A stretch of DNA of 64,000 nt from Gammaproteobacteria bacterium (GCA_021773195.1 JAJFKN010000032.1:18644-82643), one strand, 5' to 3'; positions 939-20,503 are shown, counted from the first letter of the stretch. Program-made: numbers and translations. Notes: generated from the letters alone by a model not told the origin.

Positions 939-1059
939 ATCAATGTCGTACCTCCGATCCCATTTTTCCAAACACGCCGTTAATACATCCCTGTAGGCTC
1001 GGATGCGGCATCCCTGCCGTATACGGTTTGTAAAAATGGGATCCTCGGTTGACATTGAT
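939..1059. repeat. Palindromic dispersed element, copy 1 (ATCCCT double-loop family)
   Basis: Arms ATCAATGTC..GATCCCATTTTTCCAAAC / GTTTGTAAAAATGGGATC..GACATTGAT enclose a core shared with 8488-8603 and 20400-20503. Confidence 0.85.
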
Positions 1060-1077
1060 TGTTTGCGTTCAACTTAA

Positions 1078-2385
1078 TCACAACCTACTACCAACCTCCT
1101 GTAACACTGTATCAAAAGCCTCTAAAGTTTTATCCAAAATTTCTTGGTTATGTTGATTAGATATAAATCCTGCCTCGAAAGCCGATGGTGCGAAATACAC
1201 GCCTTCTTTTAGCATGCCTTTATAGAAGGCTTTAAATAAGTCTTGGTTAGCATTTTTCACCTGTTCAAAATGAGTAATCTCATCTTCATCACTGAAGAAC
1301 ATACCGAACATGGAGCCTGCTTGGTTATAAGTAAAGGGCACCTGGTGTTTGTCGGCAATTTCTTGCATGTTGCTTAAAAGGTAACTGGTGCATTCTTCGA
1401 GGTTTTCATAAAAGTCTTCTTCTTCGAAGATGCATTGCAAAGTGGTTAACCCCGCGGCCATAGCTACGGGGTTGCCCGATAGGGTGCCCGCTTGATAGAC
1501 CGGTCCTGTGGGTGCTAGTTGCTGCATCAGTTCTGTCTTTCCGCCTAGGGCGCCTACGGGCATGCCACCGCCAATTATTTTTCCAAGGGTGGTTAAATCG
1601 GGTATGACGTTATAGCGTTGTTGTGCCGTGCCAGGACTCATACGAAAGCCTGACATGACTTCATCCATGATGAATATCGCTTGGTGTTTATCACACAGCG
1701 CGCGCAATCCCGGTAAAAAATCAGCTGTGGGTGGGATGCAATTCATATTGCCGGCAACGCCTTCTACAATAATTGCAGCGATGTCATGGGGGTATTCTTC
1801 AAATAGGGCTGCTACGGAGCTTAAATCATTGTAGGTGGCTACCAAAGTATCTTCGGTGACATGTGCCGGCACTCCAGCAGAGCTGGGTTGTCCCATGGTT
1901 AATTGGCCTGAGCCGCCTTTCACCAGTAAGGCATCACTGTGCCCATGGTATCCACCATCAAATTTAATAAATTTATTACGCCCCGTTTTGCCGCGAGCTA
2001 ATCGAATGGCGGTCATGGTGGCTTCGGTTCCTGAGTTCACCATGCGTACCTGTTGCAGAGAAGGAATATGCTGGCAAAGAAATTCGGCCATAGTGACTTC
2101 AATTTCCGTACAAGCACCAAAGCTTAACCCGTTATTGGCGACAGTTTTAAAGGCTTCTAAAACTTTGGGATGGGCGTGCCCCAGAATCAGTGGTCCCCAA
2201 GAACCCACATAATCGATGTAACGCTTGCCATCCACATCAAAAAGATAGGCACCTTCACCGCGGGCAAAAAACAGCGGATCGCAATCCACACTGTTAAAAG
2301 ATCGAACGGGAGAATTGACTCCGCCGGGCATGCAAATTTTAGCTCTTTTACTGAGGGTCACGGATTGATTCATTAGGGTCTCCAT
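1078..2385 (-). CDS. hemL: Glutamate-1-semialdehyde 2,1-aminomutase
   Basis: PGGVNSPVR, SGTEATM, DEVMSGFR, GKIIGGGMP and YQAGTLSGNP motifs. Confidence 0.97.
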   Translation of the reverse strand: METLMNQSVTLSKRAKICMPGGVNSPVRSFNSVDCDPLFFARGEGAYLFDVDGKRYIDYVGSWGPLILGHAHPKVLEAFKTVANNGLSFGACTEIEVTMAEFLCQHIPSLQQVRMVNSGTEATMTAIRLARGKTGRNKFIKFDGGYHGHSDALLVKGGSGQLTMGQPSSAGVPAHVTEDTLVATYNDLSSVAALFEEYPHDIAAIIVEGVAGNMNCIPPTADFLPGLRALCDKHQAIFIMDEVMSGFRMSPGTAQQRYNVIPDLTTLGKIIGGGMPVGALGGKTELMQQLAPTGPVYQAGTLSGNPVAMAAGLTTLQCIFEEEDFYENLEECTSYLLSNMQEIADKHQVPFTYNQAGSMFGMFFSDEDEITHFEQVKNANQDLFKAFYKGMLKEGVYFAPSAFEAGFISNQHNQEILDKTLEAFDTVLQEVGSRL

Positions 2386-2472
2386 AATGGGGCTGCCACA
2401 TTATATCGAGTCAAGCATCCAAAGTGCACCCTTTATGATATAATCTCGCCTTTGAACAATAGCAGACCAATT

Positions 2473-2901
2473 ATGACTAATTTTCAAACTTTTGTGTCCC
2501 ACAATCTGATATGGGTGGGGCTTTTCGTCGTGGTGCTAGCCGCGTTGATTTTTAATGAACTGCGTGGTCGAGCCGGTGGTTTGAAACCCTTGGATCCACA
2601 ACAAGCCACTCATTTAATCAACCGTGAGAATGCGTTGATTTTGGATATTCGCGATGTTGGGAGTTTCCAGCAAGGCCATATCGCTAATGCCCATAATATC
2701 CCCAAGGGTGATACCTCTAAAAAGGCTAAGAAGCTTAATCGCTACAAAGATAAGCCGGTTTTGTTAGTGGATAGGACGGGACAGCAAGTGAGTAAGGTGG
2801 CTAATGACTTGAAAAAACAAGGATTTTCTCAGCTGGCCTACCTGAAGGGAGGGATAAGTGCTTGGCAAGGAGCAAGTTTTCCTTTAGTTAAGGGCAAATA
2901 A
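2473..2901 (+). CDS. Membrane-anchored rhodanese-like protein (YibN-like)
   Basis: N-terminal TM helix, LDIR..F..GHI and L.GG..AW motifs; conserved position before grxC-secB. Confidence 0.88.
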   Translation: MTNFQTFVSHNLIWVGLFVVVLAALIFNELRGRAGGLKPLDPQQATHLINRENALILDIRDVGSFQQGHIANAHNIPKGDTSKKAKKLNRYKDKPVLLVDRTGQQVSKVANDLKKQGFSQLAYLKGGISAWQGASFPLVKGK

Positions 2902-2939
2902 GCCGAAAACCTATTGCAGCCTGTATTTGGGAGTAGAAA

Positions 2940-3203
2940 GTGTCGAAGATTGAGATATATAGTAAACCAACCTGCCCCTATTGTGTGCGGGCTTTAAACC
3001 TGTTAGAAAAGAAGGGCTTGGCTTATAGCGAGATTAACCTTTTGGACGAGCCGCAACGCCATCAGGAAATGTTGGATCGCGCTGAAGGCCGCCATACGGT
3101 CCCGCAAATTTTTATCGACGGTAAAGGCGTTGGTGGTTGCGATGAGTTGTTTGCCTTGGATGCATCGGGGCAATTGGATAAATTATTGAAATGTACGCAG
3201 TAG
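2940..3203 (+). CDS. grxC: Glutaredoxin 3
   Basis: CPYC, TVPQIFI and GGCD motifs. Confidence 0.95.
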   Translation: MSKIEIYSKPTCPYCVRALNLLEKKGLAYSEINLLDEPQRHQEMLDRAEGRHTVPQIFIDGKGVGGCDELFALDASGQLDKLLKCTQ

Positions 3204-3241
3204 TTATTTAGGTAACGAGATTGAAAGAGGAGCTCTAAATC

Positions 3242-3775
3242 ATGGCAAAGAAAGACAAACAGGATAGGCAGGACAAGCAAGCGGAAGAAGTGAAAGCGGG
3301 TGCTGAAGGCGACCGTCCTGAATTTATCATCCAACGCTTGTACGTGAAAGATATTTCCTATGAAGCGCCTAAGACACCAGCCATCTTTAAAGATGAATGG
3401 AAACCTGAGGTGAGCTTGGATTTGCAAACCAACAGTTCTGTGGTGGAAAGCAATGTTCATGAAGTTGTTTTACACTTAACTGTGACTGTAAAAATGGCGG
3501 ATCAAACGGCATTTTTGGTGGAAGTGAAACAAGCGGGTATTTTCACCATTAAAGGCATTGAAGGGGACCAATTGAAACATACCCTCGGCAGTTATTGCCC
3601 TGGTGTGATTTTCCCTTACGCTCGGGAAACGGTTTCCGATGTGGTCATACGCGGTGGATTCCCCCAATTGAATTTAGCCCCCATCAACTTTGATGCGCTA
3701 TATAATCAATACATGCAACAACAAGCTGAGCAAGAGGCCAAGAAAGGCGGCGACCAAGAAGAAGTCCGTCACTAG
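3242..3775 (+). CDS. secB: Protein export chaperone SecB
   Basis: [19 protein letters not shown] and [13 protein letters not shown]. Confidence 0.97.
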
Positions 3776-3786
3776 TAGGGAATACT

Positions 3787-4782
3787 ATGCATGACACAAT
3801 GGCCGTACTCGGGGCTGGTTCCTGGGGTACGGCACTTGCTATTCATCTTGCCAAAACTGGCCAACCCATTAATCTATGGGGTTGGCGCGCCGATGAATTA
3901 TCTGAAATGGCAACCAAGGGCGAAAATAATGTTTATTTGCCTGGTATCCCCTTCCCTGAATCCATCAGGTTACAGCCTAATTTATCTACAGCCCTTGCAG
4001 GGGTGAAAGATATCATGGTGGCTGTACCCAGTGTGGGTTTTGCCAGTACCTTGCAACAGGTCAAAGCTTTAGGGGATGCACCGCGACGCATTCTCTGGGT
4101 AACCAAAGGATTGGATCCTAAAAAACATTGTTTATTGCATCAAATAGTTCAAGAAACCTTTGGCAAAGACATTCCTATGGCGGTTTTATCGGGCCCCTCT
4201 TTTGCCAAAGAAGTAGCTATGGGTTTACCAACGGCCATTACCTTAGCCAGTCACGATGAAGCCTTTACGGCGGATTTAGTGTCTCGCTTTCACCATGATT
4301 TATTTCGCGTTTATACCTGTGATGATTTAGTGGGTGTGCAATTAGGTAGTGCGATAAAGAATGTAATCGCTGTGGCTGCGGGTATCAGCGATGGCTTAGG
4401 CTTTGGTGCCAATGCACGCTCTGCCATTATTACCCGGGGTTTGGCCGAGATGGTGCGTTTGGGTTTAGCCTTAGGTGGTAAGCCACAAACTTTTATGGGC
4501 CTAGCGGGCATGGGCGATTTAGTGTTAACTTGTACCGACGACCAATCGCGCAACCGCCGTTTTGGTTTGCAATTGGGACAGGGGAAAAATGCACAACAAG
4601 CCATCGATGACATTGGTCAGGTGGTAGAATCCGCTGATAATGCATTACTGGTGCTGCAATTAGCGCGGGATAATAACATTGATATGCCCATCACCCATGA
4701 CGTTTGCCGTGTTATTGGGGGGGAAATATCAGCGCGGGATGCTGTAGTGTCTTTGATGTCGCGGGCGCCTAAGGGCGAATGA
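3787..4782 (+). CDS. gpsA: NAD(P)H-dependent glycerol-3-phosphate dehydrogenase
   Basis: GAGSWGTALA, SGPSFA and GDLVLTC..SRN. Confidence 0.97.
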   Translation: MHDTMAVLGAGSWGTALAIHLAKTGQPINLWGWRADELSEMATKGENNVYLPGIPFPESIRLQPNLSTALAGVKDIMVAVPSVGFASTLQQVKALGDAPRRILWVTKGLDPKKHCLLHQIVQETFGKDIPMAVLSGPSFAKEVAMGLPTAITLASHDEAFTADLVSRFHHDLFRVYTCDDLVGVQLGSAIKNVIAVAAGISDGLGFGANARSAIITRGLAEMVRLGLALGGKPQTFMGLAGMGDLVLTCTDDQSRNRRFGLQLGQGKNAQQAIDDIGQVVESADNALLVLQLARDNNIDMPITHDVCRVIGGEISARDAVVSLMSRAPKGE

Positions 4783-4916
4783 CATTTCTACTATGTCGGC
4801 CATATCTTGTAGACTTGCTGTGTTTCGCTGCTCATTTACTTCCATGTAAACTGCGCTGCGATACTCACAAATCAAGAACTTATATCTTGACCTAGCAAAA
4901 TGGCAACAGACCCTTA
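4770..4916. mobile_element. Degenerate MITE-like element overlapping the gpsA stop codon
   Basis: Imperfect terminal IRs TAAGGG-CGAATGACATTT / AAATGGCAACAGACCCTTA; internal palindrome GCTCATTTAC-TTCCAT-GTAAACTGCGC. Confidence 0.45.
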
Positions 4917-4925
4917 ATTCTTATT

Positions 4926-5381
4926 CTATTTGAAATCTAACTGTCGCCAGGCTTCGTAGAGAATGATGGCTACGGAATTGGAGAGATTTAAACTGCGGCT
5001 GTTAGATACCATGGGGATTCGAATCACTTGCTCGGGGGGCAAGGATTGCAGAATCTCTCTCGGTAAGCCACGGGTCTCTGGCCCGAAGAGCAAACAATCA
5101 CCCGCTTGATAAGTCACGTCAGCATAATTAGCTGTACCCTTGGTGGAGCAAGCAAAAATGCGTTGGTTTGCCATGCCGCTGGTGAACGTCGCATAATTCT
5201 TATGTTCTGTTACTGTAGCTAATGCTTTATAATCCAATCCTGCACGGCGGAGTTTTTTATCGTCCATTCTAAAGCCCAAGGGATGAATTAAATGCAAGCG
5301 CGAGCCGCTGTTGGCGCATAAGCGGATGATATTACCCGTATTAGGCGGGATTTCTGGTTCGTAAAGTGCAATCTGTAACAT
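4926..5381 (-). CDS. trmL: tRNA (cytidine/uridine 34)-2'-O-methyltransferase
   Basis: [29 protein letters not shown] and RSLNLSN. Confidence 0.96.
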
Positions 5382-5409
5382 AGCATTATCATACCCTGCT
5401 AGGTAAGCT

Positions 5410-5464
5410 TTGACAAAGGCTTGTTAACCCCTTAGAGTGCAGACACACGGATAGGGACGTCTGT
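5410..5464 (+). promoter_or_regulatory. Sigma70-like promoter followed by a hairpin with ACGGA/AGGGA (possible CsrA sites)
   Basis: TTGACA-17nt-TAGAGT, then GCAGAC-ACACGGATAGGGAC-GTCTGT. Confidence 0.5.
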
Positions 5465-5564
5465 ATATAATAAGATTACCTCCCTACCATACCTTAAAAA
5501 TGAGACCATCTTGGATGCATGTAATGCATTCCAGGATCTCGTAAAGAATAAAGAGAGTTGGCTT

Positions 5565-6698
5565 ATGCTAAGAAATACAGAAGAACAAGACATCGATCAA
5601 CTGATTGAAGCTGTTAGCCAAGGAAAATCGACGTCAACAGAACTGGACTTTTCAGAAAAGGTTATCGACGTGCCTGATCAAGAACGACTAGTTAGTGAGC
5701 TTATCTACAATCAACAGATAATCAGCCTAAGTTTTAGTCGTCAAACTCTGGGTGGGGGCCTCTTCGATCTTTTACAGAGAATGTTAGGGAAAAATGAGAC
5801 TTTAACCACACTTAATTTAAGTCGTACTAGAATGACCAGAAAACAATGGCAATCATTATTAACAGGCCTTAAAAAGAATCACACTCTAACGACCTTGAAT
5901 GTATCTCATAATCCAGATTTAGTTGTGACAGAAGCAATGTTGCAGGATCTTTTTCATGTCAATCGCAGGAGTGCATTGCGAACTATTAATTTAGAAGGCA
6001 CGGCCTCAACAGGCGTGCAACGAATCTATAGTGCGCTTCAAGCCTTTCATAAAGGTGTTCCGCAAGCCTACGGCGGGAAATCCATGGCATTGTTCGGAGG
6101 GGCATCTCCTTCCACAGAATCTGATGATGTTCAATCCCATCATATCATTGTAAGTGTTGATGTTGTCACTAAGAGGCTACAGGCAAATGAGGAAGATTTA
6201 ATGGCGCTGGACCTCTCCGGCCGAGACCTCACTAATGAAGAAGTCTGCGCTATTGCAGAAACCTTGAAAACCAATACCCATTTAAAACGTTTAAATTTAA
6301 GCAATAATAGTTTTGGATTATTAGGTATCAGAGCGCTGATTGAAGCGCTTAAAGAAAACACTATCCTAGAAGCTATTTCCATAAAAAACACAACAGCCTT
6401 GGATCTGATGACCTGCCGTCGTGTCCTTAAGATGCCAGATGCTAGTGTCCCAGAGGAACTAAGGAATGCTTGGTCGGTGCTCGAAGACAGCGGCCTGGCT
6501 TTGTTGGAGGCTAATCACACCCTGCAAGTTTTTTATATGGATGTAGATGAAGAGATAAAAATCTTATTAGGCGCAATAGAAGGCAAACTGGCTGAGCGAA
6601 GTGGTGCCATTGATCTTAAAGCTTACTTTAGCGACCCTGATTTATGGCCTGTTAAAAAGCAGAATTCAGACGATAATAATGGTTGCCGGATTTGTTAA
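5565..6698 (+). CDS. Ribonuclease-inhibitor-type leucine-rich repeat protein with C-terminal CaaX-like box; putative secreted effector
   Basis: Repeats NxTLTTLNLS, NTHLKRLNLSNN and LDLSG; ends GCRIC*; ATG 5565 follows GAGAG. Confidence 0.75.
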   Translation: MLRNTEEQDIDQLIEAVSQGKSTSTELDFSEKVIDVPDQERLVSELIYNQQIISLSFSRQTLGGGLFDLLQRMLGKNETLTTLNLSRTRMTRKQWQSLLTGLKKNHTLTTLNVSHNPDLVVTEAMLQDLFHVNRRSALRTINLEGTASTGVQRIYSALQAFHKGVPQAYGGKSMALFGGASPSTESDDVQSHHIIVSVDVVTKRLQANEEDLMALDLSGRDLTNEEVCAIAETLKTNTHLKRLNLSNNSFGLLGIRALIEALKENTILEAISIKNTTALDLMTCRRVLKMPDASVPEELRNAWSVLEDSGLALLEANHTLQVFYMDVDEEIKILLGAIEGKLAERSGAIDLKAYFSDPDLWPVKKQNSDDNNGCRIC

Positions 6699-6702
6699 TA
6701 CT

Positions 6703-7521
6703 TTATGACTGTTGTACTTCTGATGAGGGTTGTTTTTGGTACAACCAAGAAAACAAATCGGGTAATTCTTGCCAGTAAAGATTCAGTGGAGGGAGGTCAG
6801 ACAATTGATGGGCCAACATATTTTCCCAGCTAATGGCGAGCTCCTCATATTTTCTATGATTTTTCATTCGTTCCATAGTGGGCACGGGAAGTTTTTTGTA
6901 AGCACATTTCTTTTTTAGTACATTAAAGACATCCTGAGATTTGAGTTCAGGAGGTGAACTCCGGTAGAGATGTATTACATCATATAAATCTCTAGGTCTG
7001 GCTCGCTTGCTCAATGCACGAATTTTTTCTGCAAAAATTTCCTGATAGCCATAACAAATGGCTTTAGTATCAGGCATATCTGAATAAGGGTGATGAACAT
7101 CGCGTGTTACTGGTGGCAATACAAGGAGTTCATCAGCTGTGAGATCAAACTTTATTCTTACGGGATCACCTTGGCGCTGTAAAGGTCCAATATAACCCAT
7201 TTTGCCTTCAATGGAATTTTTCTTATTCTTGTTTTGATACATTTTAAATTGAATGGTATTTTCTGGTATTTCTATACCTGATTCCTCATGCATCCATTGT
7301 GAAATATCCTTAAATGTGTTCGTTAAAAAATCTTCATTTATGTGTTGATAGTTTCTCAGCGTATAATCAAGATCTTCAGAGAATCGATATTTTCGGAAGT
7401 AACACTTTTTTAGACAGGTGCCACCTTTAAAGACCCATTGATCAAATAAATCTTTTTCCACAATATTTGCCGTTAGTCCGAATTCCCGAGCTTTATCTAG
7501 GAGCTCGTGTGAAGTAATCAT
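6703..7521 (-). CDS. AbiEii/AbiGii nucleotidyltransferase toxin (type IV TA), apparent in-frame N-terminal deletion
   Basis: FKGGTCLKK, RFSEDLD, EKIRAL and RPRDLYD motifs. Confidence 0.88.
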   Translation of the reverse strand: MITSHELLDKAREFGLTANIVEKDLFDQWVFKGGTCLKKCYFRKYRFSEDLDYTLRNYQHINEDFLTNTFKDISQWMHEESGIEIPENTIQFKMYQNKNKKNSIEGKMGYIGPLQRQGDPVRIKFDLTADELLVLPPVTRDVHHPYSDMPDTKAICYGYQEIFAEKIRALSKRARPRDLYDVIHLYRSSPPELKSQDVFNVLKKKCAYKKLPVPTMERMKNHRKYEELAISWENMLAHQLSDLPPLNLYWQELPDLFSWLYQKQPSSEVQQS

Positions 7522-7558
7522 GTAGGTACTCCTAACTTAGGGGCTGTTTACAATCCCA

Positions 7559-8359
7559 CTAGTATTTCCACCTCTCAGGCACCCATAACTTCCAGCGAGT
7601 AACTAATTTATTATTATTCAATTCAGGGTCAAGTTTTGCTTTGCTATTGGTTAAGTGCTCTTTACAATAATGGATGTATTTCTTTTCGATTGCGGAATCT
7701 CGTTCCATCAAAAAACCGAGGCGTTTAAATACCGTTCCATTATTTAATTTACGAGCATAATGAAACAGGGTATCAAGTTCTGTATGTTCTGACTTTAGAT
7801 AGTTCGATAGTACATCAGCAACGTGTTCTATACCACCACCAATATTCGGCGTATTTATTAAATCGATAATTGTTTTGGACGGGTCAGAGATTTTTATTTT
7901 GATTTGCCCACGCCACAGGCTCTTTAAGCCAAAGAAAGTATTTTCGGGAATCTTATGTAATAGGAAGCGAGTGTTTTTAATGGTAATATTTTTATTACGT
8001 TGTTTTTGTTTAGTGAATACAACAACGGTACTAAAGAGCTGCTCAGTCAACCCCCAATATTCTGCGGCACTCCAGCCTGCGATGTAGCAGGGAGCATACA
8101 GTTTGGTTGCGACAATAAAAGGATCTTCCAGTGTTATATCGCTGTCTATGGCTTCCAGTGGGACAGGAATATAAATGCCAGCTTTGATGCGTGATAGCCA
8201 ACCTTTGGTAGCATAGCGGGCCAATAGGGTAGAGGCCCTATGCTGGGATATGTCCAAAATGTTGGAGGCTTCTTTTGCTGTTATAGTGTAGGTCGTACCA
8301 CGAAGTAGTAGTGTTAGCCTTTCACGATCTAATTTGCCGATGCCCAAAGGTCTGCCCAT
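7559..8359 (-). CDS. AbiEi family antitoxin / transcriptional regulator
   Basis: N-terminal wHTH (GWLSRIKAGIY), YIAGWSAAEYWGLTEQ and ISDPSKTIID; lies upstream of the AbiEii gene. Confidence 0.88.
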   Translation of the reverse strand: MGRPLGIGKLDRERLTLLLRGTTYTITAKEASNILDISQHRASTLLARYATKGWLSRIKAGIYIPVPLEAIDSDITLEDPFIVATKLYAPCYIAGWSAAEYWGLTEQLFSTVVVFTKQKQRNKNITIKNTRFLLHKIPENTFFGLKSLWRGQIKIKISDPSKTIIDLINTPNIGGGIEHVADVLSNYLKSEHTELDTLFHYARKLNNGTVFKRLGFLMERDSAIEKKYIHYCKEHLTNSKAKLDPELNNNKLVTRWKLWVPERWKY

Positions 8360-8360
8360 A

Positions 8361-8417
8361 GTACCTCTCGGGTGTATTTTTAAATTGATAATATGTATTA
8401 TAGCACCTAGGAGGCAC
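8361..8417 (-). promoter_or_regulatory. Extended -10 promoter and imperfect inverted repeat upstream of abiEi (possible autorepression operator)
   Basis: Minus strand TGcTATAAT; GTACCTCTCGGGTG vs CACCTAGGAGGCAC match 10/14 as an IR. Confidence 0.4.
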
Positions 8418-8487
8418 TCATTGCCATCTTTTTACGGGCAGGCATAATCCTTTGAAAATATTGATGTTTGATATCCTCAGGTCTTTA

Positions 8488-8603
8488 ATGCCGACGCGGA
8501 GAGCAGTTTTGCAAACCTTAAGCAGCAGGGATGCTGATTAAGAGCCCCCAGGGATGGGATGGGTTCACGGCGTGTTTGCAAAACTGCTCTTCGACGTCGG
8601 CAT
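8488..8603. repeat. Palindromic dispersed element, copy 2 (inverted relative to copies 1 and 3)
   Basis: ~29-bp IR ATGCCGACGCGGAGAGCAGTTTTGCAAAC / GTTTGCAAAACTGCTCTTCGACGTCGGCAT around a core with two CAGGGATG motifs. Confidence 0.85.
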
Positions 8604-8615
8604 GGATAAAGCCAG

Positions 8616-9527
8616 TTATTGTTCCACCGCTTCACCGATGTAATTCACATCGGGCGTCGCTTCAGGTGTTACGGTATCTTTGGCTGTTTGCGAAGAGCCT
8701 TTCCAAATGATGTATGGATTTTGCTTAATACCCATTTGATGACTCAATTCCACTTGGTAATTACGATGTTGCAAGTAAGCATCGCGGATGAAGGCATAAT
8801 CGTCCACGGAGATTTGCTTACGCAGTTCTTCATTCTCCAGGAGATTTGCTCTCAAGTTAACAATATCCACACCCAACAGAGCATAACGTAGATACCAAGG
8901 ATTGATATAAGTCCAAGCCGAGATGGTGAAGAAGTCAATGGGCAGTGCAATGGCATCACGAATGGTGCTAGGGCCCAAGAGTGGGATCACAAAATAGGTG
9001 GAATTGGTCCAACCCCATTTAGCGAAGGTGATCCCCATATCTGTACGATGGTGTTTTAAGCCTGTTTTCGCAGCCACATCAAACAAACCACCAATACCAA
9101 CGGTGCTGTTGATAGCAAAGCGCCAAAAATCCGCGGTGGCTTGATAAAGATTCAATTGTAAAACATCATTGGTGAAAGTGGGGATCTCATCCAGGTTATT
9201 ATAAAAATTGGTTACCCGGGCACGGGCATAACTGGGCACAACAAAACGGTAGCCTTCAGCTACTGGTTTCATAACAAAGGTATCTACCCCATCATTGAAA
9301 TCAAAAAACAATTTATTGGAGTAAATCAAAGGGTCTTTGGTTTCACTCGCTAATACCTCGTCGAATAAATCATCCTCGTCACGGGTTGTGGGTACGCCTT
9401 GAATGGTGGTCTGCAAGGTGGTGGACACAATAGGCGTTTGTGCCTGAGCTGCAAAAGGCATGCAAGCAATGGTAGCTGCCATGGAAGAAATAAAAAGTGT
9501 GGTACAGTGTTGTCTTAATGTTTTCAA
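8616..9527 (-). CDS. mlaA: MlaA/VacJ family outer-membrane lipid asymmetry protein
   Basis: RFAINSTVGIGGLFDVA, DMGITF..WG, PLLGPSTIRD and YAFIRDAYLQ. Confidence 0.9.
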   Translation of the reverse strand: MKTLRQHCTTLFISSMAATIACMPFAAQAQTPIVSTTLQTTIQGVPTTRDEDDLFDEVLASETKDPLIYSNKLFFDFNDGVDTFVMKPVAEGYRFVVPSYARARVTNFYNNLDEIPTFTNDVLQLNLYQATADFWRFAINSTVGIGGLFDVAAKTGLKHHRTDMGITFAKWGWTNSTYFVIPLLGPSTIRDAIALPIDFFTISAWTYINPWYLRYALLGVDIVNLRANLLENEELRKQISVDDYAFIRDAYLQHRNYQVELSHQMGIKQNPYIIWKGSSQTAKDTVTPEATPDVNYIGEAVEQ

Positions 9528-10624: not shown

Positions 10625-10686
10625 GCTTATTTATGTCACTCTCCGATACTAGCCAATGGCGCTCTTAACTTTACTCTGCCCCCAAA

Positions 10687-11027
10687 CGTCACCCCCGTTT
10701 TTACACGTCACCTCCCCTGAGGGGAGGTCCAGTGAGTTATTCGACTCAGCTATGGATCCCCTGCCGCCCCCGAACGTCATCCCGGAATTTTTCGAAGAAA
10801 AATATCCGGGATCCAGTCAGATTAGGTAGCCCCAGCTTCGCTGGGACGCTTGTTTGGATTGGATCCCCTGCCTTCGCAGGGGATGACGTTAGTTGGTGCA
10901 GGGGTTGATGGAAGTGGTGCACCCCCGCCGCCCCCGAACGTCATTCCCGCGAAGGCGGGAATCCATAGCTGAATCGAATAACTCACTGGATCCTGGATAT
11001 TTTTCTGTGCAAAATTCCAGGAAAACG
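10687..11027. repeat. Cluster of CGTC-type REP palindromes arranged as dimers
   Basis: CGTCACCTCCCCTGAGGGGAGGTCCA; CGTCATCCCGGAATTTTTCGAAGAAAAATATCCGGGATCCA; TGGATCCCCTGCCTTCGCAGGGGATGACG; CGTCATTCCCGCGAAGGCGGGAATCCA (fits ATTCCC-N8-GGGAAT). Confidence 0.9.
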
Positions 11028-11042
11028 GGGTTTGTCGCAAGC

Positions 11043-11074
11043 AAAAAAAATCCCCTCTTTTGAGGGGATTTTTT
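11043..11074. terminator. Bidirectional intrinsic terminator
   Basis: AAAAAAAA-TCCCCTC-TTTT-GAGGGGA-TTTTTT between convergent genes. Confidence 0.85.
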
Positions 11075-11121
11075 ATAACGATATGGTTGGTATCAGTTAT
11101 GCGTAGTTTGTTATTTCCAGT

Positions 11122-13008
<1,887 letters not shown>

Positions 13009-13131
13009 AGGATATCATCCTCGATTCTTAAGGTTAATTCATTGAATAATTGGGTATTTTTGCCGGTTGAATCGCTATGGGCTTAGCATGTTCCGTGATT
13101 TTTTGGCCCAGGATGGCCATTCGTGGGGTCT

Positions 13132-13160
13132 ATAATACGGGAAAACAGTGGAATTGTCAA
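13132..13160 (-). promoter_or_regulatory. Sigma70 promoter for the 628-aa ORF
   Basis: Minus strand TTGACA-17nt-TATTAT. Confidence 0.65.
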
Positions 13161-13161
13161 T

Positions 13162-13198
13162 AAAAAAGCCAGATCCCTAGGAAAGGGCCTGGCTTTTT
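13162..13198 (-). terminator. Intrinsic terminator of the HU-like gene
   Basis: AAAAAAGCCAGATCCCT-AGGAA-AGGGCCTGGCTTTTT hairpin with T-run on the minus strand. Confidence 0.7.
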
Positions 13199-13220
13199 CA
13201 TTTTTGAGAAAAAAGGCTTA

Positions 13221-13793
13221 TTATTCAGCCATTTCTTTCAATTTCTTCAAAGGACGAACTTTTACAACATTGCGAGCTGGTTTAGCTTTGAATGTGGTTT
13301 CTTCGCCGGTGAAGGGGTTGATGCCTCTACGAGCTTTCGTAGCGGGTTTTCTAACAACCTTGATTTTGCACAGACCCGGCAAGGTGAATTCGCCAGCAGC
13401 GCGTTTTCTTACGCTACGATCGATGATGTTACTCAAAGAATCGAATACAGCGCCGATTTCTTTCTTGCTAAGATCCGTATCTTCAGCAATCATGCTGAAA
13501 AGTTGAGACTTAGGCAATTTGCTCGTGATACTAGAAGTAGGTAACTTCTTAGGAGCTGCTTTTTTAGCAGGAGCGCGTTTAGCCGTTGCCTTTTTAGCAG
13601 CAGGTTTGCGAGCTGTGGTTTTACGAGCTGTGGTTTTACGCTTAGCTGTTGCTTTTTTAGCAGCAGGTTTGCGTTTAGCCGTTGTCGTTTTACGCTTAGA
13701 AGTTGCCTTCTTAGCTGTACGAGTTGTACTGCGCTTTGCAGTAGCCTTTTTCTTGGTAGCAGTTTTCCGTTTAGCGGTTCTCTTTGCAGCCAT
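13221..13793 (-). CDS. HU/IHF-family DNA-binding protein with histone H1-like K/A/R/T-rich N-terminal tail
   Basis: C-terminal HU fold (FTLPGL..K..RKPA..R.GINPFTGE..KAKPA) preceded by ~80 aa of KPAAKK/KRKTT repeats. Confidence 0.92.
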   Translation of the reverse strand: MAAKRTAKRKTATKKKATAKRSTTRTAKKATSKRKTTTAKRKPAAKKATAKRKTTARKTTARKPAAKKATAKRAPAKKAAPKKLPTSSITSKLPKSQLFSMIAEDTDLSKKEIGAVFDSLSNIIDRSVRKRAAGEFTLPGLCKIKVVRKPATKARRGINPFTGEETTFKAKPARNVVKVRPLKKLKEMAE

Positions 13794-13902
13794 GTTTACC
13801 TTCTCCTAAAGAATGGTTAAATTAATAAAAATCGTAAGTAAATTACAATAGCTTAATGTTACACTATTAAGCACGTTTTGTAGCGTTTTGTAAGGTATTT
13901 TT

Positions 13903-14223
13903 ATGGATTTTTATGAAAAACACGTGTTTTTCTGTATTAATAAGCGGGAAAATGGTCGAAAATGTTGTGCAGATGCCGATTCGCAGCATCATCGTGACTA
14001 CATGAAAGCACGTTTAAAGGCCATGGGCATGCATGGGAAAGGGTTAATTCGAGTGAATACGTCGGGTTGTTTAGGCCGATGCGCACAGGGCCCGACCTTA
14101 GTTATTTATCCAGAAGGGGTTTGGTATACCTACGCCAACGTGGATGACTTGGATGAAATTATCCAAGAACATTTAGTCAAGGGAAAGCCCGTGACTCGAT
14201 TGCTGATGCCAGAAGAGAAATAA
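13903..14223 (+). CDS. Thioredoxin-like [2Fe-2S] ferredoxin
   Basis: HVFFC.N.R...CC and GCLGRC..GP..VIYPEGVWY. Confidence 0.92.
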   Translation: MDFYEKHVFFCINKRENGRKCCADADSQHHRDYMKARLKAMGMHGKGLIRVNTSGCLGRCAQGPTLVIYPEGVWYTYANVDDLDEIIQEHLVKGKPVTRLLMPEEK

Positions 14224-14370
14224 AACAGTGGCGTTTATGGGGGTGTTTCTCCCCAATCCCCAGGCCAGTTTCTTTGGATTTATCCACTATCTGCCTTGAG
14301 TGTCGTGTCAACTATTATATAGTAGGAGTGGTCTGGTCATAAAGTGACCTTTATCCGTGGGCTTCAGCGG

Positions 14371-14399
14371 TTGTTTTATCCAGGGGAGTAGAGTACAAT
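14371..14399 (+). promoter_or_regulatory. rplM-rpsI promoter
   Basis: TTGTTT-17nt-TACAAT followed by a GC-rich discriminator. Confidence 0.55.
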
Positions 14400-14442
14400 C
14401 CCCGCCCTTAACTGGGATAATTCCAGACTGGAGCACAGAATC

Positions 14443-14880
14443 ATGAAAACTTATAGTGCAAAGCCAGAGAGCGTAACGCGGGATTGGTATATCGTAGATG
14501 CCACCGATAAGACCCTGGGGCGTTTAGCCACAGAGGTCGCCCGTAGGCTCCGGGGCAAGCATAAGCCCGTCTATACCCCCCATGTGGATACAGGCGATTA
14601 CATTATTATATTAAATGCAGCGAAAGTTCGCGTTACTGGCGATAAGGCTAAAAAGAAGATTTATCATCATCATACGGGTTTCCCCGGTGGTATTAAATCC
14701 ATTACTTTTGATAAGCTTTTAGCCCGGTCACCCGAGCGTATCATCGAAAAAGCGGTAAAAGGCATGTTACCTAAAGGTCCTTTAGGTCGCCAAATGTATC
14801 GTAAGATGAAGGTTTATGCGGGTACTGAACATCCTCATACAGCCCAGCAGCCACAACCATTAGAAATAGCGGAAGGTTAA
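14443..14880 (+). CDS. rplM: 50S ribosomal protein L13
   Basis: [27 protein letters not shown]. Confidence 0.98.
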
Positions 14881-14883
14881 ACC

Positions 14884-15306
14884 ATGTCTAAGCAACAATA
14901 TTACGGCACGGGTCGCCGCAAAAGTTCTACGGCGCGGGTATTTATTAAAGCCGGTAAAGGCACCATCACGGTGAATTGTAAGTCATTAGATGATTACTTT
15001 GGTCGTGAAACAGCTCGTATGGTGGTTCGTCAACCCCTAGAAGCTGTGAATATGATGGGTAAATTTGATATCTATATCACCGTTCGTGGTGGTGGTCACT
15101 CAGGTCAATCGGGCGCTATTCGCCACGGTTTGACTCGGGCCCTCATGAATTATGATGAAGAAACTGGCGGTTCGGGTGAAGGCGACAAATCTTTCCGACG
15201 TATTCTACGTAAAGAGGGTTACGTGACTCGTGACTCCCGTGAAGTGGAACGTAAGAAAGTGGGTCTGCACAAAGCGCGTAAACGTCCACAATACTCGAAA
15301 CGTTAA
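14884..15306 (+). CDS. rpsI: 30S ribosomal protein S9
   Basis: GTGRRKSS and [20 protein letters not shown]. Confidence 0.98.
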
Positions 15307-15325
15307 TTACTTTTCGTTTCCTTGG

Positions 15326-15360
15326 AAAAAGGCAGAATCCCTTGGGTTCTGCCTTTTTTT
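15326..15360 (+). terminator. Intrinsic terminator after rpsI
   Basis: AAAAAGGCAGAATCC-CTT-GGGTTCTGCCTTTTTTT. Confidence 0.85.
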
Positions 15361-15410
15361 GTGGGTGGATGACGGGCCTTCGCGCAAACTTTTACGTCTA
15401 TCTGCGGGAA

Positions 15411-15508
15411 GGCATCCCCGTGGGAACAGGCGACCCAGTCCGAATAAGTGTTTTAGCAAAGCTGAAACGACCTAATCTGACTGGACCCCGGCCTTCGCCG
15501 GGGTGACG
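15411..15508. repeat. CGTC-type REP dimer with cargo hairpin homologous to 10813-10862
   Basis: Degenerate REP, 50-nt hairpin, then TGGACCCCGGCCTTCGCCGGGGTGACG. Confidence 0.8.
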
Positions 15509-15689
15509 TTGGGGCTGGAGACGGAGTGACGTTGGGGCGGGAGACGGGGTGACGTTGGGCCCGAGCGGGGTGACGTTGGGGCTGGACGGGGTGGCGTTGG
15601 GGCTGGAGACGGAGTGACGTTGGGGCTGGAGACGGAGTGACGTTGGGGCTGGACGGGGTGACGTTGGAGCCGAGCGGGGTGGCGTGGGC
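15500..15689. repeat. G-rich minisatellite, 8 full units of 23/21 bp plus a partial ninth
   Basis: Consensus GG(G/A)GTGACGTTGGGGCTGG(AG)AC; unit lengths 23,23,21,21,23,23,21,21. Confidence 0.95.
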
Positions 15690-15703
15690 AAGCCTGTGAA
15701 ACA

Positions 15704-15744
15704 CGTCATCCCGGAATTTTTCGAAGAAAAATGTCCGGGATCCA
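15704..15744. repeat. Long CGTC-type REP palindrome
   Basis: CGTCATCCCGGAATTTTTCGAAGAAAAATGTCCGGGATCCA; 1 mismatch to 10775-10815. Confidence 0.92.
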
Positions 15745-15776
15745 GGCCAAAACAGGGCTCTGCGGGGGAAGCAGTC

Positions 15777-16868
15777 CTAAACGTTAAAGCGAAAGTGCAC
15801 GACATCGCCATCAAGCATAATGTAATCTTTGCCTTCTAAGCGCCATTTGCCCGCTTCTTTACAGCCGGCTTCACCTTTATATTGAATGAAATCCTCAAAA
15901 GCCGTGACTTCCGCCCGGATAAAGCCTTTTTCAAAATCTGTGTGTATGCGTCCTGCTGCTTGGGGTGCTGTGGAACCTTGGCGCACGGTCCAAGCTCGTA
16001 CTTCTTTGACGCCTGCGGTAAAGTAAGTTTGTAAGCCTAATAAATCGTATCCCGCATGAATGACTCGGTCCAACCCGGGTTCTTCAAGTCCTAAGTCTTG
16101 CAGGAATTCTTGTTTTTCAGTATCGTCCAATTCGGCAATTTCTGCTTCTATAGAAGCACAAACAGCGACTATTTTCGCTCCTTCTTTATCCGCAATGGCT
16201 TGCACTTGATCCAAATAAGCATTATCGGTGAAGCCATCATCGGCTACATTGGCAATATATAAAGTGGGTTTGGCCGTCAATAAATGCAGATCACGCAACC
16301 AGACTTTTTCAGCGTCGGTGTACTCTAATGTACGTACAGGGTCACCCTTATCTAATTGCTCTTTTACTTTCGCATAAAAAACTTGTTGTGCTTTTGCTTC
16401 TTTATCACCGGATTTAGCTAATTTAGCAATACGTTGCAGGGCTTTTTCCATGCTTTCTAAGTCAGCCAAAGCTAACTCTGTATGGATAATATCAATGTCC
16501 CTTTGCGGATCCACATGACCTGATACGTGAGTAACATCGTCATCATCAAAACAACGAACCACATGGGCAATGGCATGGGTTTCTCGAATATTCGCCAGGA
16601 ATTTATTACCTAAGCCTTCACCTTTTGATGCCCCCGCCACGAGGCCTGCTATGTCCACAAACTCCATAGTGGTGGGAATGACTTTTTGTGGCTTCACGAT
16701 GTCCGCCAATTGATTCAAGCGGGGATCGGGCATGGGTACGATGCCCACATTAGGCTCGATGGTGCAAAAGGGATAGTTGGCAGCATCGATGCTGGCTTTG
16801 GTTAAAGCATTAAAAAGCGTGGATTTGCCCACATTTGGTAAGCCCACGATACCGCAATTGAAACCCAT
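15777..16868 (-). CDS. ychF: Ribosome-binding ATPase YchF
   Basis: [26 protein letters not shown] and [10 protein letters not shown]. Confidence 0.98.
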
Positions 16869-16922
16869 AATGATATCCTTTGGATGTTATTTTAAGAGAG
16901 GAATTGTAGCATAAATTACAGT

Positions 16923-17495
16923 TTAGGGCTCGGTATGCAACTCTTTCATGGCTCGTTCTTCATCACCTTCCAGGGCCCAGGGCATTACGTCTAATGCGCG
17001 ATAGATGGCTTCATCAATGGCGGTTTGTTCACTGGAGGTTGGTCTTTTTAAGACATAATTCACTACATCGCGGCCCTTGCCAGGATGTCCAATACCAATA
17101 CGGACACGCAGAAAGTTTTTACCCATGCGGGCTATGATGTCCCGCAGTCCATTATGGCCGCCATGTCCACCGTCGCGTTTTAAGCGCACTGTGCCGGCAG
17201 GTAAATCCAATTCATCGTGAGCCACAAGGATATTTTCCAGGGGGATCTTATAAAAACTTGCGACACTTTGTACGGCTTGGCCGCTGAGATTCATGAAAGT
17301 ATGGGGCAAGAGAAAACGACAATCTTGACCGGCGATGGAGGCGCGGCCCACTTGGCCATGGAATTTTTTTTCTAAAGAGAGGGTAACGCCTAATTGCCGG
17401 GCTAGGGCTTTAACGAACCAACAGCCAGCGTTATGACGGGTTTTTTCATAGTCGGAGCCGGGATTCATTAAGCCAACTACCAATTGAATGGGCAT
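16923..17495 (-). CDS. pth: Peptidyl-tRNA hydrolase
   Basis: TRHNAG, FMNLSG, HDELDL and GGHGGHNGL. Confidence 0.97.
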   Translation of the reverse strand: MPIQLVVGLMNPGSDYEKTRHNAGCWFVKALARQLGVTLSLEKKFHGQVGRASIAGQDCRFLLPHTFMNLSGQAVQSVASFYKIPLENILVAHDELDLPAGTVRLKRDGGHGGHNGLRDIIARMGKNFLRVRIGIGHPGKGRDVVNYVLKRPTSSEQTAIDEAIYRALDVMPWALEGDEERAMKELHTEP

Positions 17496-17556
17496 TTTTC
17501 AACAGACTCCTTGTGAAAAGGCCCCTTCTCTTAAAGGGGCCCTTTGCGAGGAGAGC

Positions 17557-18243
17557 TTACTCCTCGCCACCTTCTTCAGCTTCTGAACCTTTATCTTCGC
17601 TTTCAGAACTTTCAGCGCCTTCTTCAGTTTCTTCTGTCTCAGGTTCGGGTTCTTCCTGGATGCGTTGCAGATGGAGGCTAACCACAGGGTGATCGTTTTC
17701 ACCATGGGTTTCTACAGGTTGTTGCAACTCCACATCTTTTGGCAACTTAATATCGGAAATATGTAACACAGAGTCCATTTCCATTTTAGAAACGTCCACT
17801 TGGATGAATTCAGGTAAAGCACCGGGTAAACAAGTGACTTCCAAATCCGTAATGGTGTGACTGAAAGTTCCCCCTTCGTTAACACCAGGAGCCTCTTCTT
17901 CACCCAAGAAATGCAATGGGATGTGCATTTTGAGTTTTTCAGTAGCGCTAACTCGTAGAAAATCTAAATGATTTACTTTAGGTTTGTAAACATGGCGTTG
18001 AATGTCTTTCAAAACCACTTTTTCTTTTTTGCCATCTAGATTGATGGTCAAAATTTGCGAGTAAAAGCTTTCATTTTCCAGGGCATGGCAGATTTCATTT
18101 TGCTTTACGCTGATTTTGATGGGCTCTTTGGACGCACCATAGATAATGGCGGGTACTTTATCTTCTAGGCGACGCAGGCGGCGGCTCGCACCCTTCCCAA
18201 CATCGGACCGTAATTCGGCCTGAATTTCTGACTTTTCTGACAT
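17557..18243 (-). CDS. rplY: 50S ribosomal protein L25/general stress protein Ctc
   Basis: GKGASRRLRR, VPAIIYG and HLDF; long form with acidic tail. Confidence 0.96.
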   Translation of the reverse strand: MSEKSEIQAELRSDVGKGASRRLRRLEDKVPAIIYGASKEPIKISVKQNEICHALENESFYSQILTINLDGKKEKVVLKDIQRHVYKPKVNHLDFLRVSATEKLKMHIPLHFLGEEEAPGVNEGGTFSHTITDLEVTCLPGALPEFIQVDVSKMEMDSVLHISDIKLPKDVELQQPVETHGENDHPVVSLHLQRIQEEPEPETEETEEGAESSESEDKGSEAEEGGEE

Positions 18244-18371
18244 GTGATAACTCCAATATTATTAATCATTTATCTACTATCGTGCCCGCGACCAGGACCC
18301 GACAGGAGGCGGCATTATACAGGGTATAGAGGCACGACACCAGCGCCTATTTTATAGGGGGGCTTTGGGCA

Positions 18372-19319
18372 TTATTCGGCGAACATTGAACTTACGGATT
18401 CTTCTTCATTAATGCGTCGAATGGTCTGAGCAAGCATTTGGCTGAGGGTGATTTGTCTAATTTTAGAGCATTCCTTGGCACCTTCATGCAGTGGAATGGT
18501 ATCCGTCACCACGATATCATCCAGTGCCGAAGCTTGAATTCGCTCAATGGCATTGCCCGATAAAATAGCATGGGTGCAATAGGCTGATACGGTAGCAGCG
18601 CCATTCTTCTTAAGAGCTTCAGCTGCCAAGCAGAGAGTTCCCGCCGTATCCACCATGTCATCCACGAGGATACAATTGCGGTCTTTTACGTCACCAATGA
18701 GATTCATGACTTCCACTTGATTAGGGCCGGCACGCCGTTTATCAATAATGGCTAAATCGGAGTCATTCAAGCGTTTAGCAAAGGCTCTAGCACGAATCAC
18801 GCCGCCTACATCGGGGGAAACCACCATGGGATTAGGAAAGTTTTGTTTGCGAATATCTTCCATAAGCACGGGGGTGCCATAGACATTATCCACGGGGATA
18901 TAAAAGAATCCCTGAATCTGATCCGCGTGTAAGTCCACGGTTAATAAACGATTGACGCCCACTTTGGCCATCATATCGGCTACCACTTTTGCCGTAATAG
19001 GCACCCGAGCTGAACGCACACGACGATCTTGGCGGGCATAACCGAAATAAGGAACCACGGCGGTGATGCGTTTTGCTGAAGCGCGGCGAAAGGCATCGGC
19101 CATGATAATCATCTCCATCAAATGATCATTGGCAGGATTGTTAGTGGATTGAATAATAAAAACTTCCCGTCCACGAACGTTTTCTAATAATTCCACCATA
19201 ATTTCGCCATCGCTGAAGCGATCGACGGTAATCTTACCCAGCTCAATATCTAAATGATTCGCGATGGAGGCTGATAATTCAGGATTTGAATTTCCGCTAA
19301 AGATCATCATTTCTGACAT
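18372..19319 (-). CDS. prs: Ribose-phosphate pyrophosphokinase
   Basis: [26 protein letters not shown] and [10 protein letters not shown]. Confidence 0.98.
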
Positions 19320-19355
19320 GGGCAGCTGTCCTTGGCAATTAGGTGAAAATGTAGA

Positions 19356-19430
19356 TGGCTGGGGTGCCAGGATTCGAACCTGGGAATGCGGAGATCAAAA
19401 CCCCGTGCCTTACCACTTGGCGACACCCCA
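19356..19430 (-). tRNA. tRNA-Gln(TTG)
   Basis: TGGGGTGTCGCCAAGTGGTAAGGCACGGGGTTTTGATCTCCGCATTCCCAGGTTCGAATCCTGGCACCCCAGCCA folds as a cloverleaf with encoded CCA. Confidence 0.97.
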
Positions 19431-19530
19431 ATAAACGATTCTCGCAATGATTTTTGAGAACCGATATTTTGCGGGGTGACGTATGGCTTGTCAATTGTTA
19501 TAACAAAAAAATTCACCAAGAGTTGCCAAA

Positions 19531-20142
19531 TTAGCGACTAATTTGCCACTGATTGATGGCCATTCTCACTTTTACCGGGCCATTATTCATAAAAACACGT
19601 TTGGGTAAATCTATACCACTTACGTTGGTGTATTGTTTATATTGAATATTCCAGCCTTGTTGTTGCAGGCTGGTAATATGATGGTAGGCGTCCCATTGTT
19701 TGTTTGAGGGTGAACCCGGTGCAGGCAATCCTCGAACCCAATAGTACAAATTACTTACGGGCACATCCCAACCCAGTTGTTGTTGTAGAAGGATTTCTGG
19801 ATTGTTGGCGGAGGTGGTTTTGCCATTGGCCATGCGTAAAATGACTTGGCCAGGATGGCCAGTGAGTTTGACGCTGCCCATGCCCACGGGGCCGTATAGA
19901 TCCATTTGGTAATTATTAGGCCCTTTTTGTTGCCATTGAACCTGAGCGCTGCCCGCCTGCTTTGGGGTGACAACACTCATGGCACCGTTGAGCTGCCAGC
20001 TTTGGATGCTGGCTAATTGGTGACTACGGGTTTCCCAGGTGAGCTTTTTATCTTGTGGTGGGGCTTGTACGGGGGTGGTTGTGGCGCAGGCGGTGAGCAG
20101 GCATGCCGTGGCGAGCGTGATTATGTGGCCTGTGAATTTCAT
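19531..20142 (-). CDS. lolB: Outer-membrane lipoprotein receptor LolB
   Basis: Lipobox LTAC after ATG 20142; W...G, P.G.G and LGW..PV..L.YWVRG motifs; synteny with prs. Confidence 0.9.
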   Translation of the reverse strand: MKFTGHIITLATACLLTACATTTPVQAPPQDKKLTWETRSHQLASIQSWQLNGAMSVVTPKQAGSAQVQWQQKGPNNYQMDLYGPVGMGSVKLTGHPGQVILRMANGKTTSANNPEILLQQQLGWDVPVSNLYYWVRGLPAPGSPSNKQWDAYHHITSLQQQGWNIQYKQYTNVSGIDLPKRVFMNNGPVKVRMAINQWQISR

Positions 20143-20399
20143 GGTGGTCCTTAAGTAATGTTCGGTGGCAATTAATATCGGTAAAGCCGATAGAAGATTA
20201 TCCTTTGTAAAACACACGCTGCGCTGCTGTGAATACATTCCTGTAGCTTTCTTGCTGCTAAGAGTTTTACAAAGGACCATCCTAATACAGGCATGCAGGT
20301 ATCTATCTCGGTATCTTTGCTAATACCAGAATCTACTTAGGCCTGTGATTGTAGCATACCCTCTTAAAGCTTGTTATGCTTTGGTTTGGGATAGTTGTG

Positions 20400-20503
20400 G
20401 AAATTGTTGATCGCTTTTTTCAAATATGCTGTTAATAGGTCCCTGTAAGCGCTATGCAGGCATCCCTCCCACATACGGTTTGAAAAAAGCGATCAATAAT
20501 TTC
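20400..20503. repeat. Palindromic dispersed element, copy 3
   Basis: 25-bp IR GAAATTGTTGATCGCTTTTTTCAAA / TTTGAAAAAAGCGATCAATAATTTC (1 G-T pair) around a degenerate shared core. Confidence 0.8.

Follow-up and report, generated by a model that had tools for sequence, protein, structure and literature searches.

The window analysed here is a stretch of 64,000 nucleotides from a Gammaproteobacteria bacterium (GCA_021773195.1, JAJFKN010000032.1:18644-82643), whose assembly comprises 2.44 Mb in 60 contigs, with 42.8% G+C and 95.5% completeness; window coordinates are those of contig C26 minus 18643. It contains three copies of a small, structured, palindromic element. A sequence-only reading of this DNA had placed dispersed copies at 939-1059, 8488-8603 and 20400-20503, and all three were confirmed at these positions, with scores from 69.3 to 95.6 bits under our covariance model (R1). 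We designate as T strand the strand on which the loops of the element read ATCCCT, and as G strand, or GGA strand, its complement; the T strand lies on the plus strand in the first and third copies and on the minus strand in the second.

Copy 1 (939-1059; model match 949-1050, 95.6 bits) folds at -53.8 kcal/mol, with a z-score of -7.5. Its core (969-1030, +) consists of a three-way junction with an AAAC/GTTT closure, a GTTAA bulge and two hairpins, whose ATCCCT loops occupy positions 987-992, with the complement AGGGAT lying within CAGGGATG, and, 23 bases 3' of the first loop, positions 1010-1015. It is flanked by a yfcH-like gene (1-849, -) and hemL (1078-2385, -); because both neighbours are on the minus strand, the GGA strand is the sense strand there, as the sequence-only reading had noted. 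A fourth copy was found at C26:18407-18509, approximately 135-240 bases before the start of the window, so that the yfcH-like gene has a copy on each side.

Copy 2 (8488-8603; model match 8492-8599 on the minus strand, 86.8 bits, fold z-score -10.6) lies between an unnamed open reading frame (ORF) of 266 residues (7559-8359, -) and an MlaA-like gene (8616-9527, -). It belongs to a second arm subfamily (AATGCCGAC...) and carries a 5-base duplication in hairpin 1, which is missing from one metagenome contig mapping there. Copy 3 (20400-20503; model match 20401-20502, 69.3 bits) has unique arms and a decayed hairpin 2, and sits between the divergent lolB (19531-20280, -) and an amidase-like gene (from 20552, +). 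In metagenome assemblies from four DNA runs of one biofilm study, contigs break off within both copy 1 and copy 2, and none from these runs joins across an empty site.

The element is a long imperfect hairpin with a three-way junction at its centre, closed by the AAAC/GTTT helix. Hairpin 1 has 3+3 base pairs with a conserved five-base GTRAA bulge between them, hairpin 2 has approximately 10 base pairs, and the same six-base loop caps both. Copies are 104-121 bases long in the window and have longer arms in other genomes. Folding of the three copies produced a long outer stem, with z-scores of -6.5 to -10.6 over both strands. Single-sequence folding recovered the shape of the junction for copies 1 and 2 on both strands (z-scores -6.6 to -10.6), and copy 3 folds to the outer stem only because its second hairpin has decayed.

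Covariation strongly favours this structure. In an alignment of 68 diverse copies, 87.6% of cells were paired, as compared with 57.7% after shuffling, with a covariation score of 0.716 versus 0.173, and 34 of 41 pairs had changed on both sides. For 88 copies found in other genomes by the covariance model, rather than by a loop pattern, the corresponding values were 92.8% versus 58.6% and 0.823 versus 0.181, with 38 of the 41 pairs changed on both sides; this second alignment was fitted to the structure of the model and is biased towards it. None of 500 shuffles scored as high in either case, and sliding the 3' partners by 1-3 columns lowered pairing to 35-45% in both alignments. The claim that the stems covary thus held across a much wider set of copies.

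Wobble pairs were scarce, with 50 G-T (G-U) and 90 A-C among 2787 paired cells, indicating that both strands pair about equally well, as a DNA palindrome would. We discarded the asymmetry of G-U pairs as an indicator of the functional strand, being weak overall (50 versus 90) and absent from the core helices (13 versus 15), and agree with the sequence-only reading that wobbles do not point to a single strand. Separately, hairpin 2 contains a conserved non-pair at alignment columns 105 and 130; these positions do not pair in 74 of the 84 distinct copies, which points to a mismatch that is conserved and not to decay.

Throughout the genome, nhmmer searches with a 72-base core profile identified 36 places at E<0.001, and the covariance model 33 at E<=0.01. 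All 36 copies are intergenic on a gene map built from the longest ORFs. By their arms, they fall into a majority subfamily with shared ends, a second subfamily that includes copy 2, and several copies with unique arms, copy 3 among them. Ends resembling ATCAATG on the left and CATTGAT on the right are present in 24 and 16 of the 36 copies, respectively, and 15 have both.

Conservation is concentrated in the centre of the element. Mean pairwise identity in this genome was 0.69 for cores and 0.36 for arms, and in five other genomes it reached 0.88-0.97 for cores, versus 0.42-0.73 for the outer 20 arm positions. Arms of the same copy paired at 0.86-0.95 in those five genomes, whereas arms taken from different copies paired at 0.42-0.72, in agreement with the previous description of copy-specific, self-complementary arms. 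Between genomes, the core is near-constant, the arms are unrelated and the termini are wholly different. The sequence-only reading had called this the reverse of a MITE (a miniature transposable element with inverted repeats), that is, a conserved middle with variable ends; the excess of core over arm conservation bears this out, but the wording is too strong for this genome, where the majority subfamily shares its termini (both in 15 of 36 copies). The element also departs from a classical MITE in that terminal inverted repeats are not common to all copies; the termini differ completely between genomes. We also rejected the idea that the arms are pre-existing palindromes: all eight pairs of majority-type arms are 80-81 bases apart, always with the core between them. 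Outside known copies, solo arm-like sites numbered only 1 + 3. No arm motifs were found in the genome around a gene-sized insert, Y1 transposase being the sole protein family searched for as a candidate transposase.

Scanning of relatives with the covariance model, which the sequence-only reading had proposed, extended the element well beyond this genome. It was present in 38 of 151 genomes drawn evenly across the class, each from a different family (27 of the 123 genomes of good quality); among the sampled genomes without it were the unpublished G040 and G142. Of 151 genomes sampled across the phylum, 8 were positive, this one included, and all belong to the same class. A pattern scan with one genome per species returned at least 114 stretches. 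Taxa among the matches listed were Marinobacter, Exilibacterium, Franzmannia, Perlucidibaca, Pseudohongiella, Thiodiazotropha, Porticoccaceae, Cellvibrionaceae and Thiotrichaceae, together with a Lysobacterales assembly and many gammaproteobacterial assemblies. At E<=0.001, we counted 48 copies in M. koreensis, 87 in Marinobacter sp., at least 145 in E. tricleocarpae, 50 in F. pantelleriensis and 9 in Perlucidibaca.

We then compared the element with known families. At gathering thresholds, Rfam recognised a tRNA alone in the window, and no Csr or Rsm family matched. At permissive thresholds, the core aligned with RF02770 (Ysr224), with a best score of 44.7 bits (E 3.6e-8, locus L126). Genome-wide, RF02770 matched nine places at E<=1, all of them copies of the element (best 34.9 bits, E 2.8e-6), and it also matched several foreign copies, with scores of 16.8-44.7 bits overall. 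The 3' two-thirds of the RF02770 model correspond to the core of the element, read on the T, non-GGA, strand; Rfam handles the family as a small RNA (sRNA) gene, whereas here it is a repeat. By eye, the reverse strand of Yersinia pestis RU-2 (168 bases, PMC2759123 Table 1b) shows the same closing helix, bulge, hairpins and loops, matching the element at every conserved position of the core.

RU-2 is YPAL, described in Delihas' reviews, from parts of which we take the details of De Gregorio et al. (2006) at second hand, as an abundant, hairpin-forming intergenic repeat of approximately 168 bp in Yersinia and Erwinia (PMC2229807). According to the same review, YPAL lacks TA ends and its inverted repeats are internal; its target duplications span 3-26 bp, and the targets either have dyad symmetry or lie next to it; comparison of Y. 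pestis with Y. pseudotuberculosis shows both filled and empty sites; and co-transcription with upstream genes is reported. Passages of PMC2267715 and PMC2847712 give YPAL copy numbers. Ysr224, as presented in part of PMC9029176, is among the most abundant 'sRNAs' over bacterial genomes, and is expressed and responsive to temperature; in Y. ruckeri it is multi-copy, with copies expressed differently (PMC12112432, in part).

The element shares with YPAL/RU-2 its core sequence and three-way junction, its multi-copy, intergenic occurrence, a long stable hairpin with internal inverted repeats, and filled and empty sites. It differs in its arms, which are unrelated, in length (104-121 bases in the window versus approximately 167-168 bp), in its hosts (an uncultured biofilm bacterium, Marinobacter, Exilibacterium, Franzmannia, Perlucidibaca and many assembled genomes, versus the described Yersinia and Erwinia), and in target duplications, of which none was clear at two aligned Marinobacter loci. 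From the RF02770 match and the likeness to the YPAL core, we conclude that the window element is a distant member of a known family. A match to an already characterised repeat family with conserved termini was what the sequence-only reading had named as telling against it, and such a match has been found in part, since the core belongs to YPAL/RU-2 (Rfam Ysr224).

Other repeats and RNAs are less similar. ERIC/IRU and Correia/NEMIS are likewise small, intergenic and multi-copy, with RNA hairpins able to affect mRNA stability (PMC2229807, in part); in those families the termini are conserved, frequently with TA ends and fixed duplications, in contrast to the conserved centre and variable arms of the present element. 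E. coli genomes searched with one core copy produced no match, so a link to ERIC or RU-3 could not be shown. REP/BIME elements and REPINs with their RAYT are also palindromic extragenic repeats subject to structure-dependent recognition, but this genome has no Y1 gene, the element does not flank Y1 genes elsewhere, and its hairpins are direct rather than inverted. CsrB, RsmY and RsmZ display GGA in hairpin loops of the CANGGANG type; the element, unlike these RNAs, has only two such sites, occurs as dozens of dispersed copies and lacks a promoter, terminator and strand preference of its own. A resemblance of hairpin 2 to domain V of group II introns, seen in one subfamily, was dropped because the stem sequence varies across subfamilies.

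Orthologous sites showed signs of gain and loss of the element. All three M. koreensis loci compared were filled in some Marinobacter congeners and empty in others, answering the sequence-only suggestion that empty orthologous sites be sought. At locus L247, the element is in place in six species, and the spacer is just 7-26 bases in at least six. In the closest relative (G181, L261 ~2158-2237), the outer arms are kept and the inner arms and core are gone, reflecting either a deletion of the centre only or a palindrome that predates the arrival of the core. Hairpin 2 was decayed in two of the four aligned element-bearing species at this locus, which argues against strong selection on every resident copy. 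Locus L249 was filled in two species and empty in three, with the neighbouring genes overlapping as ATGA in two of the empty ones, and at L248 a 77-base spacer replaces the element in one of five species. The empty states are either ancestral or deletions between short repeats. For the host genome itself, the single same-family genome compared had no flanks in common with it.

To describe gene context, we used 128 places in 15 other genomes, with 3 kb around each (1.5 kb in G152), a longest-ORF heuristic and, in G152-G154, a filter on G+C at third codon positions (GC3). Between co-directional genes, the T strand was the sense strand in 60 places (7 in this genome; 33 and 20 in two batches from the others) and the G strand in 40 (12; 15 and 13). 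A further 38 places were between convergent genes (8; 19 and 11) and 22 between divergent genes (8; 8 and 6); ten were not classifiable. In this genome, one of the 36 copies, at a contig end, was left unclassified. The contexts in this genome roughly match the expectation for random intergenic insertion. The mild overall excess of T-sense places comes mostly from G118 (15 T-sense versus 3 G-sense) and, without it, the counts are 45 and 37. Orientation relative to local GC skew was 18:18 in this genome, with no sign of insertion tied to one replication strand. In most genomes, the element was neutral with regard to the directions in which transcription and replication run.

We consider it probable, at approximately 0.65, that the element is a member of the YPAL/RU-2 family: a small, non-autonomous, palindromic intergenic repeat that spreads and is lost as DNA. 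Its turnover, its copy number and the contrast between core and arms favour this reading, and the initial impression of a dispersed structured element with marks of mobility, based on a covarying core and fast-changing, self-complementary arms, was sound. Propagation would depend on the folded form, with a machinery that recognises the constant core plus a long stem of any sequence, that is, the folded centre rather than the ends. If only lineages that keep the core and a paired stem were copied, the core would be conserved and the arms would drift yet remain compensated, with no need for a benefit to the host. Alternatively, the arms could stay complementary because, while the element is folded, one is corrected to match its partner. 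Effects on the host would probably be by-products: transcribed either way, the element would form an RNA hairpin of very high stability, which could influence mRNA decay, as is reported for YPAL, and, transcribed from the GGA strand, it would offer two consensus hairpins of the CsrA type.

Several results weigh against this interpretation. No clean target-site duplication was found at the two Marinobacter loci where filled and empty sites were aligned, and both of these fully aligned loci are also readable as deletions. In G118 and G096, respectively, 18 of 21 and seven of seven copies have their T strand in the same orientation as the upstream gene, a strong strand preference not predicted for a purely neutral DNA element. 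Every RF02770 score is below the 70-bit gathering score of that family, with the result that the element is missed by Rfam annotation. No co-occurring transposase of the Y1 family (PF01797), the only one tried, came to light: there were 0 matches in this genome (95.5% complete) and in G101 (at least 26 copies), and in four other high-copy genomes, which do have Y1 genes, the element does not lie beside them. Finally, a mobile palindrome leaves unexplained the exact fit of both loops to CANGGANG.

On the T strand of the 88 model-found copies, from 19 genomes, each loop together with its closing pair has the sequence C-N-T-C-C-N-T-G, with the closing C present in 98%, the closing G in 98-99%, the T in 100% and the CC in 99-100%; only the two N positions vary. 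The first N was A in 41, G in 42, T in 3 and C in 2 copies in loop 1, and A in 42, G in 24 and T in 20 in loop 2; the second was C in 61, A in 19, G in 4 and T in 3, and C in 57, A in 24 and T in 5, respectively. The model was trained on copies chosen with a pattern that fixed part of the loops; these carry only about a quarter of the score, and the model would therefore still have found loop variants. It follows that the complement displays CANGGANG in a hairpin loop, twice, with the two GGA motifs approximately 23-25 bases apart. One CsrA dimer can bridge a spacing of this size.

The sequence (A/U)CANGGANG(U/A) is given as the optimal RsmE/CsrA contact by Schubert (2007), and RUACARGGAUGU as the consensus from systematic evolution of ligands by exponential enrichment (SELEX) by Dubey (2005), both as quoted in a passage of PMC6849547. 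Both G-strand loops fit the first as two sites in hairpin loops, and the minus strand of copy 1 fits the second at 11 of 12 positions. In Yersinia forms, the GGA is retained and the difference falls at an N position. The geometry of CsrA sites that the sequence-only reading saw on the opposite strand is therefore a general property of the element, and its comparison of copy 1 with the SELEX consensus was accurate. From the loop sequences, it is possible, although far from likely, that the twin loops are genuine high-affinity CsrA/Rsm sites, either as scattered cassettes that rewire post-transcriptional regulation where the GGA strand is transcribed or with CsrA acting as a host factor for the upkeep or spread of the element.

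The strongest competitor to a mobile YPAL-type repeat, although we hold it to be doubtful, is a portable cassette that binds CsrA/Rsm, the loops of which would owe their conservation to the binding of a CsrA dimer by GGA-strand RNA, with the neighbouring genes under CsrA control or with CsrA being titrated. In addition to loops that vary only at the two N positions in 88 copies, the consensus fits and a spacing within reach of a dimer, the excess of A-C over G-T mismatches (90 versus 50) speaks for it, the former becoming G-U when the GGA strand is read. This genome has three CsrA-family open frames (C7:1159-1317, C26:14677-14835 and C56:2629-2772), one of them 3.8 kb before the window, and CsrA was found in 27 of 27 good-quality genomes with the element as compared with 80 of 96 without it. 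However, CsrA was present in 123 of the 151 class genomes, which makes co-occurrence uninformative, and relatedness confounds it as well; CsrA was found in 34 of the 38 genomes with the element, and the four that show none are only 67-88% complete. Among co-directional places, there is no overall excess of the GGA strand as sense strand (40 versus 60; 12 versus 7 in this genome and 3 versus 15 in G118), the Rfam sRNA Ysr224 is the opposite, non-GGA strand, and the element comes with neither a promoter nor a terminator.

Moreover, the intergenic stretch C51:50153-50328 has nine ANGGA motifs in 176 bases, approximately 100 bases past a hairpin and T-run resembling a terminator, and from its sequence it is a candidate sponge RNA of the CsrB/RsmY type. 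With a separate candidate of this kind, the 'distributed sponge' of the sequence-only reading is not needed.

It is improbable that copies are T-strand structured sRNAs, such as Ysr224, or cis-acting hairpins in 3' untranslated regions kept for the stabilisation of mRNA. In G118 (L166-L185) and G096 (L224-L230), copies begin within approximately 25-70 bases of the upstream stop codon and follow the strand bias described above, as expected if they were 3' hairpins. The expressed, temperature-responsive and multi-copy Ysr224 (PMC9029176 and PMC12112432, in part) and the co-transcription of YPAL with upstream genes (PMC2229807, in part) point in the same direction. Against this, there was no orientation bias towards the upstream gene in this genome (15 versus 20) or in G046, G056, G153 and G154, 8 of the 36 copies lie between divergent genes, the T strand is not enriched in G-U pairs, and hairpin 2 is decayed in two species at one Marinobacter locus.

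Y1 transposases bind hairpins at the left and right ends of their substrates. The twin hairpins of the element, with the same loop and covarying stems, resemble these, and Y1 genes occur in four of the five high-copy genomes examined; even so, a REPIN or IS200/IS605-derived palindrome, both hairpins of which a Y1 (HUH) transposase would recognise in order to mobilise it in single-stranded form, is the least credible explanation and Y1/RAYT an unlikely mobiliser, since this genome and G101 have no Y1 gene, the four Y1 loci carry plain palindromes that score equally on both strands instead of the element, there is no replication-strand bias (18:18), and the hairpins are direct, not inverted, with no conserved GTAG tag.

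What is new here is a core shared across the class, together with arms that are compensated and loops that fit CsrA-type sites exactly; the kind of element is not. A search of the literature, which did not cover the original 2006 description of YPAL, returned no description of a class-wide core, of compensated copy-specific arms or of CANGGANG loops, and no report of YPAL outside enterobacteria or of a link between CsrA and YPAL. YPAL has so far been treated as a curiosity of Yersinia, and its transcripts as a Yersinia sRNA; its 60-base core is fully compensated and was present in roughly one in four of the families sampled from the class, at a few to more than 100 copies per genome. With a constant structured centre and free complementary arms, the element seems to be recognised through a folded form, not through its termini. 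For annotation, this means that copies escape Rfam and break metagenome assemblies, and that 'Ysr224' matches in sRNA catalogues are repeats rather than sRNA genes. Should CsrA indeed bind the CANGGANG loops, no other mobile element would be known to have distributed CsrA sites before, and the strong avoidance of GGA-sense orientation behind genes in G118 and G096 would represent selection against the capture of transcripts by CsrA.

Other features of the window include a tRNA gene at 19359-19430 (-; 60.2 bits), where metagenome depth is very high and varied, as for a conserved gene, and a second, unrelated family of palindromic repeats (CCCGGAATTTT...AAAATATCCGGG) at 10774-10816, 10982-11027 (inverted) and 15703-15745. 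Metagenome contig depth was 92.9 in the bin 10660-11323, which contains this second family, compared with a background of approximately 6. Tandem units of 21-23 bases (GGGGTGACGTTGGGGCTGGAGA-like) occupy 15499-15697 and adjoin the second family, which also breaks up the main element at two other genomic places, C26:87175-87268 and C9:17027-17095, where the copies are truncated. Beside further copies of this second family, between two genes at C58:128451-128539, perfect-looking tandem 7-base units (GA[C/T]GGAA) accumulate 13 A-N-GGA motifs in 89 bases.

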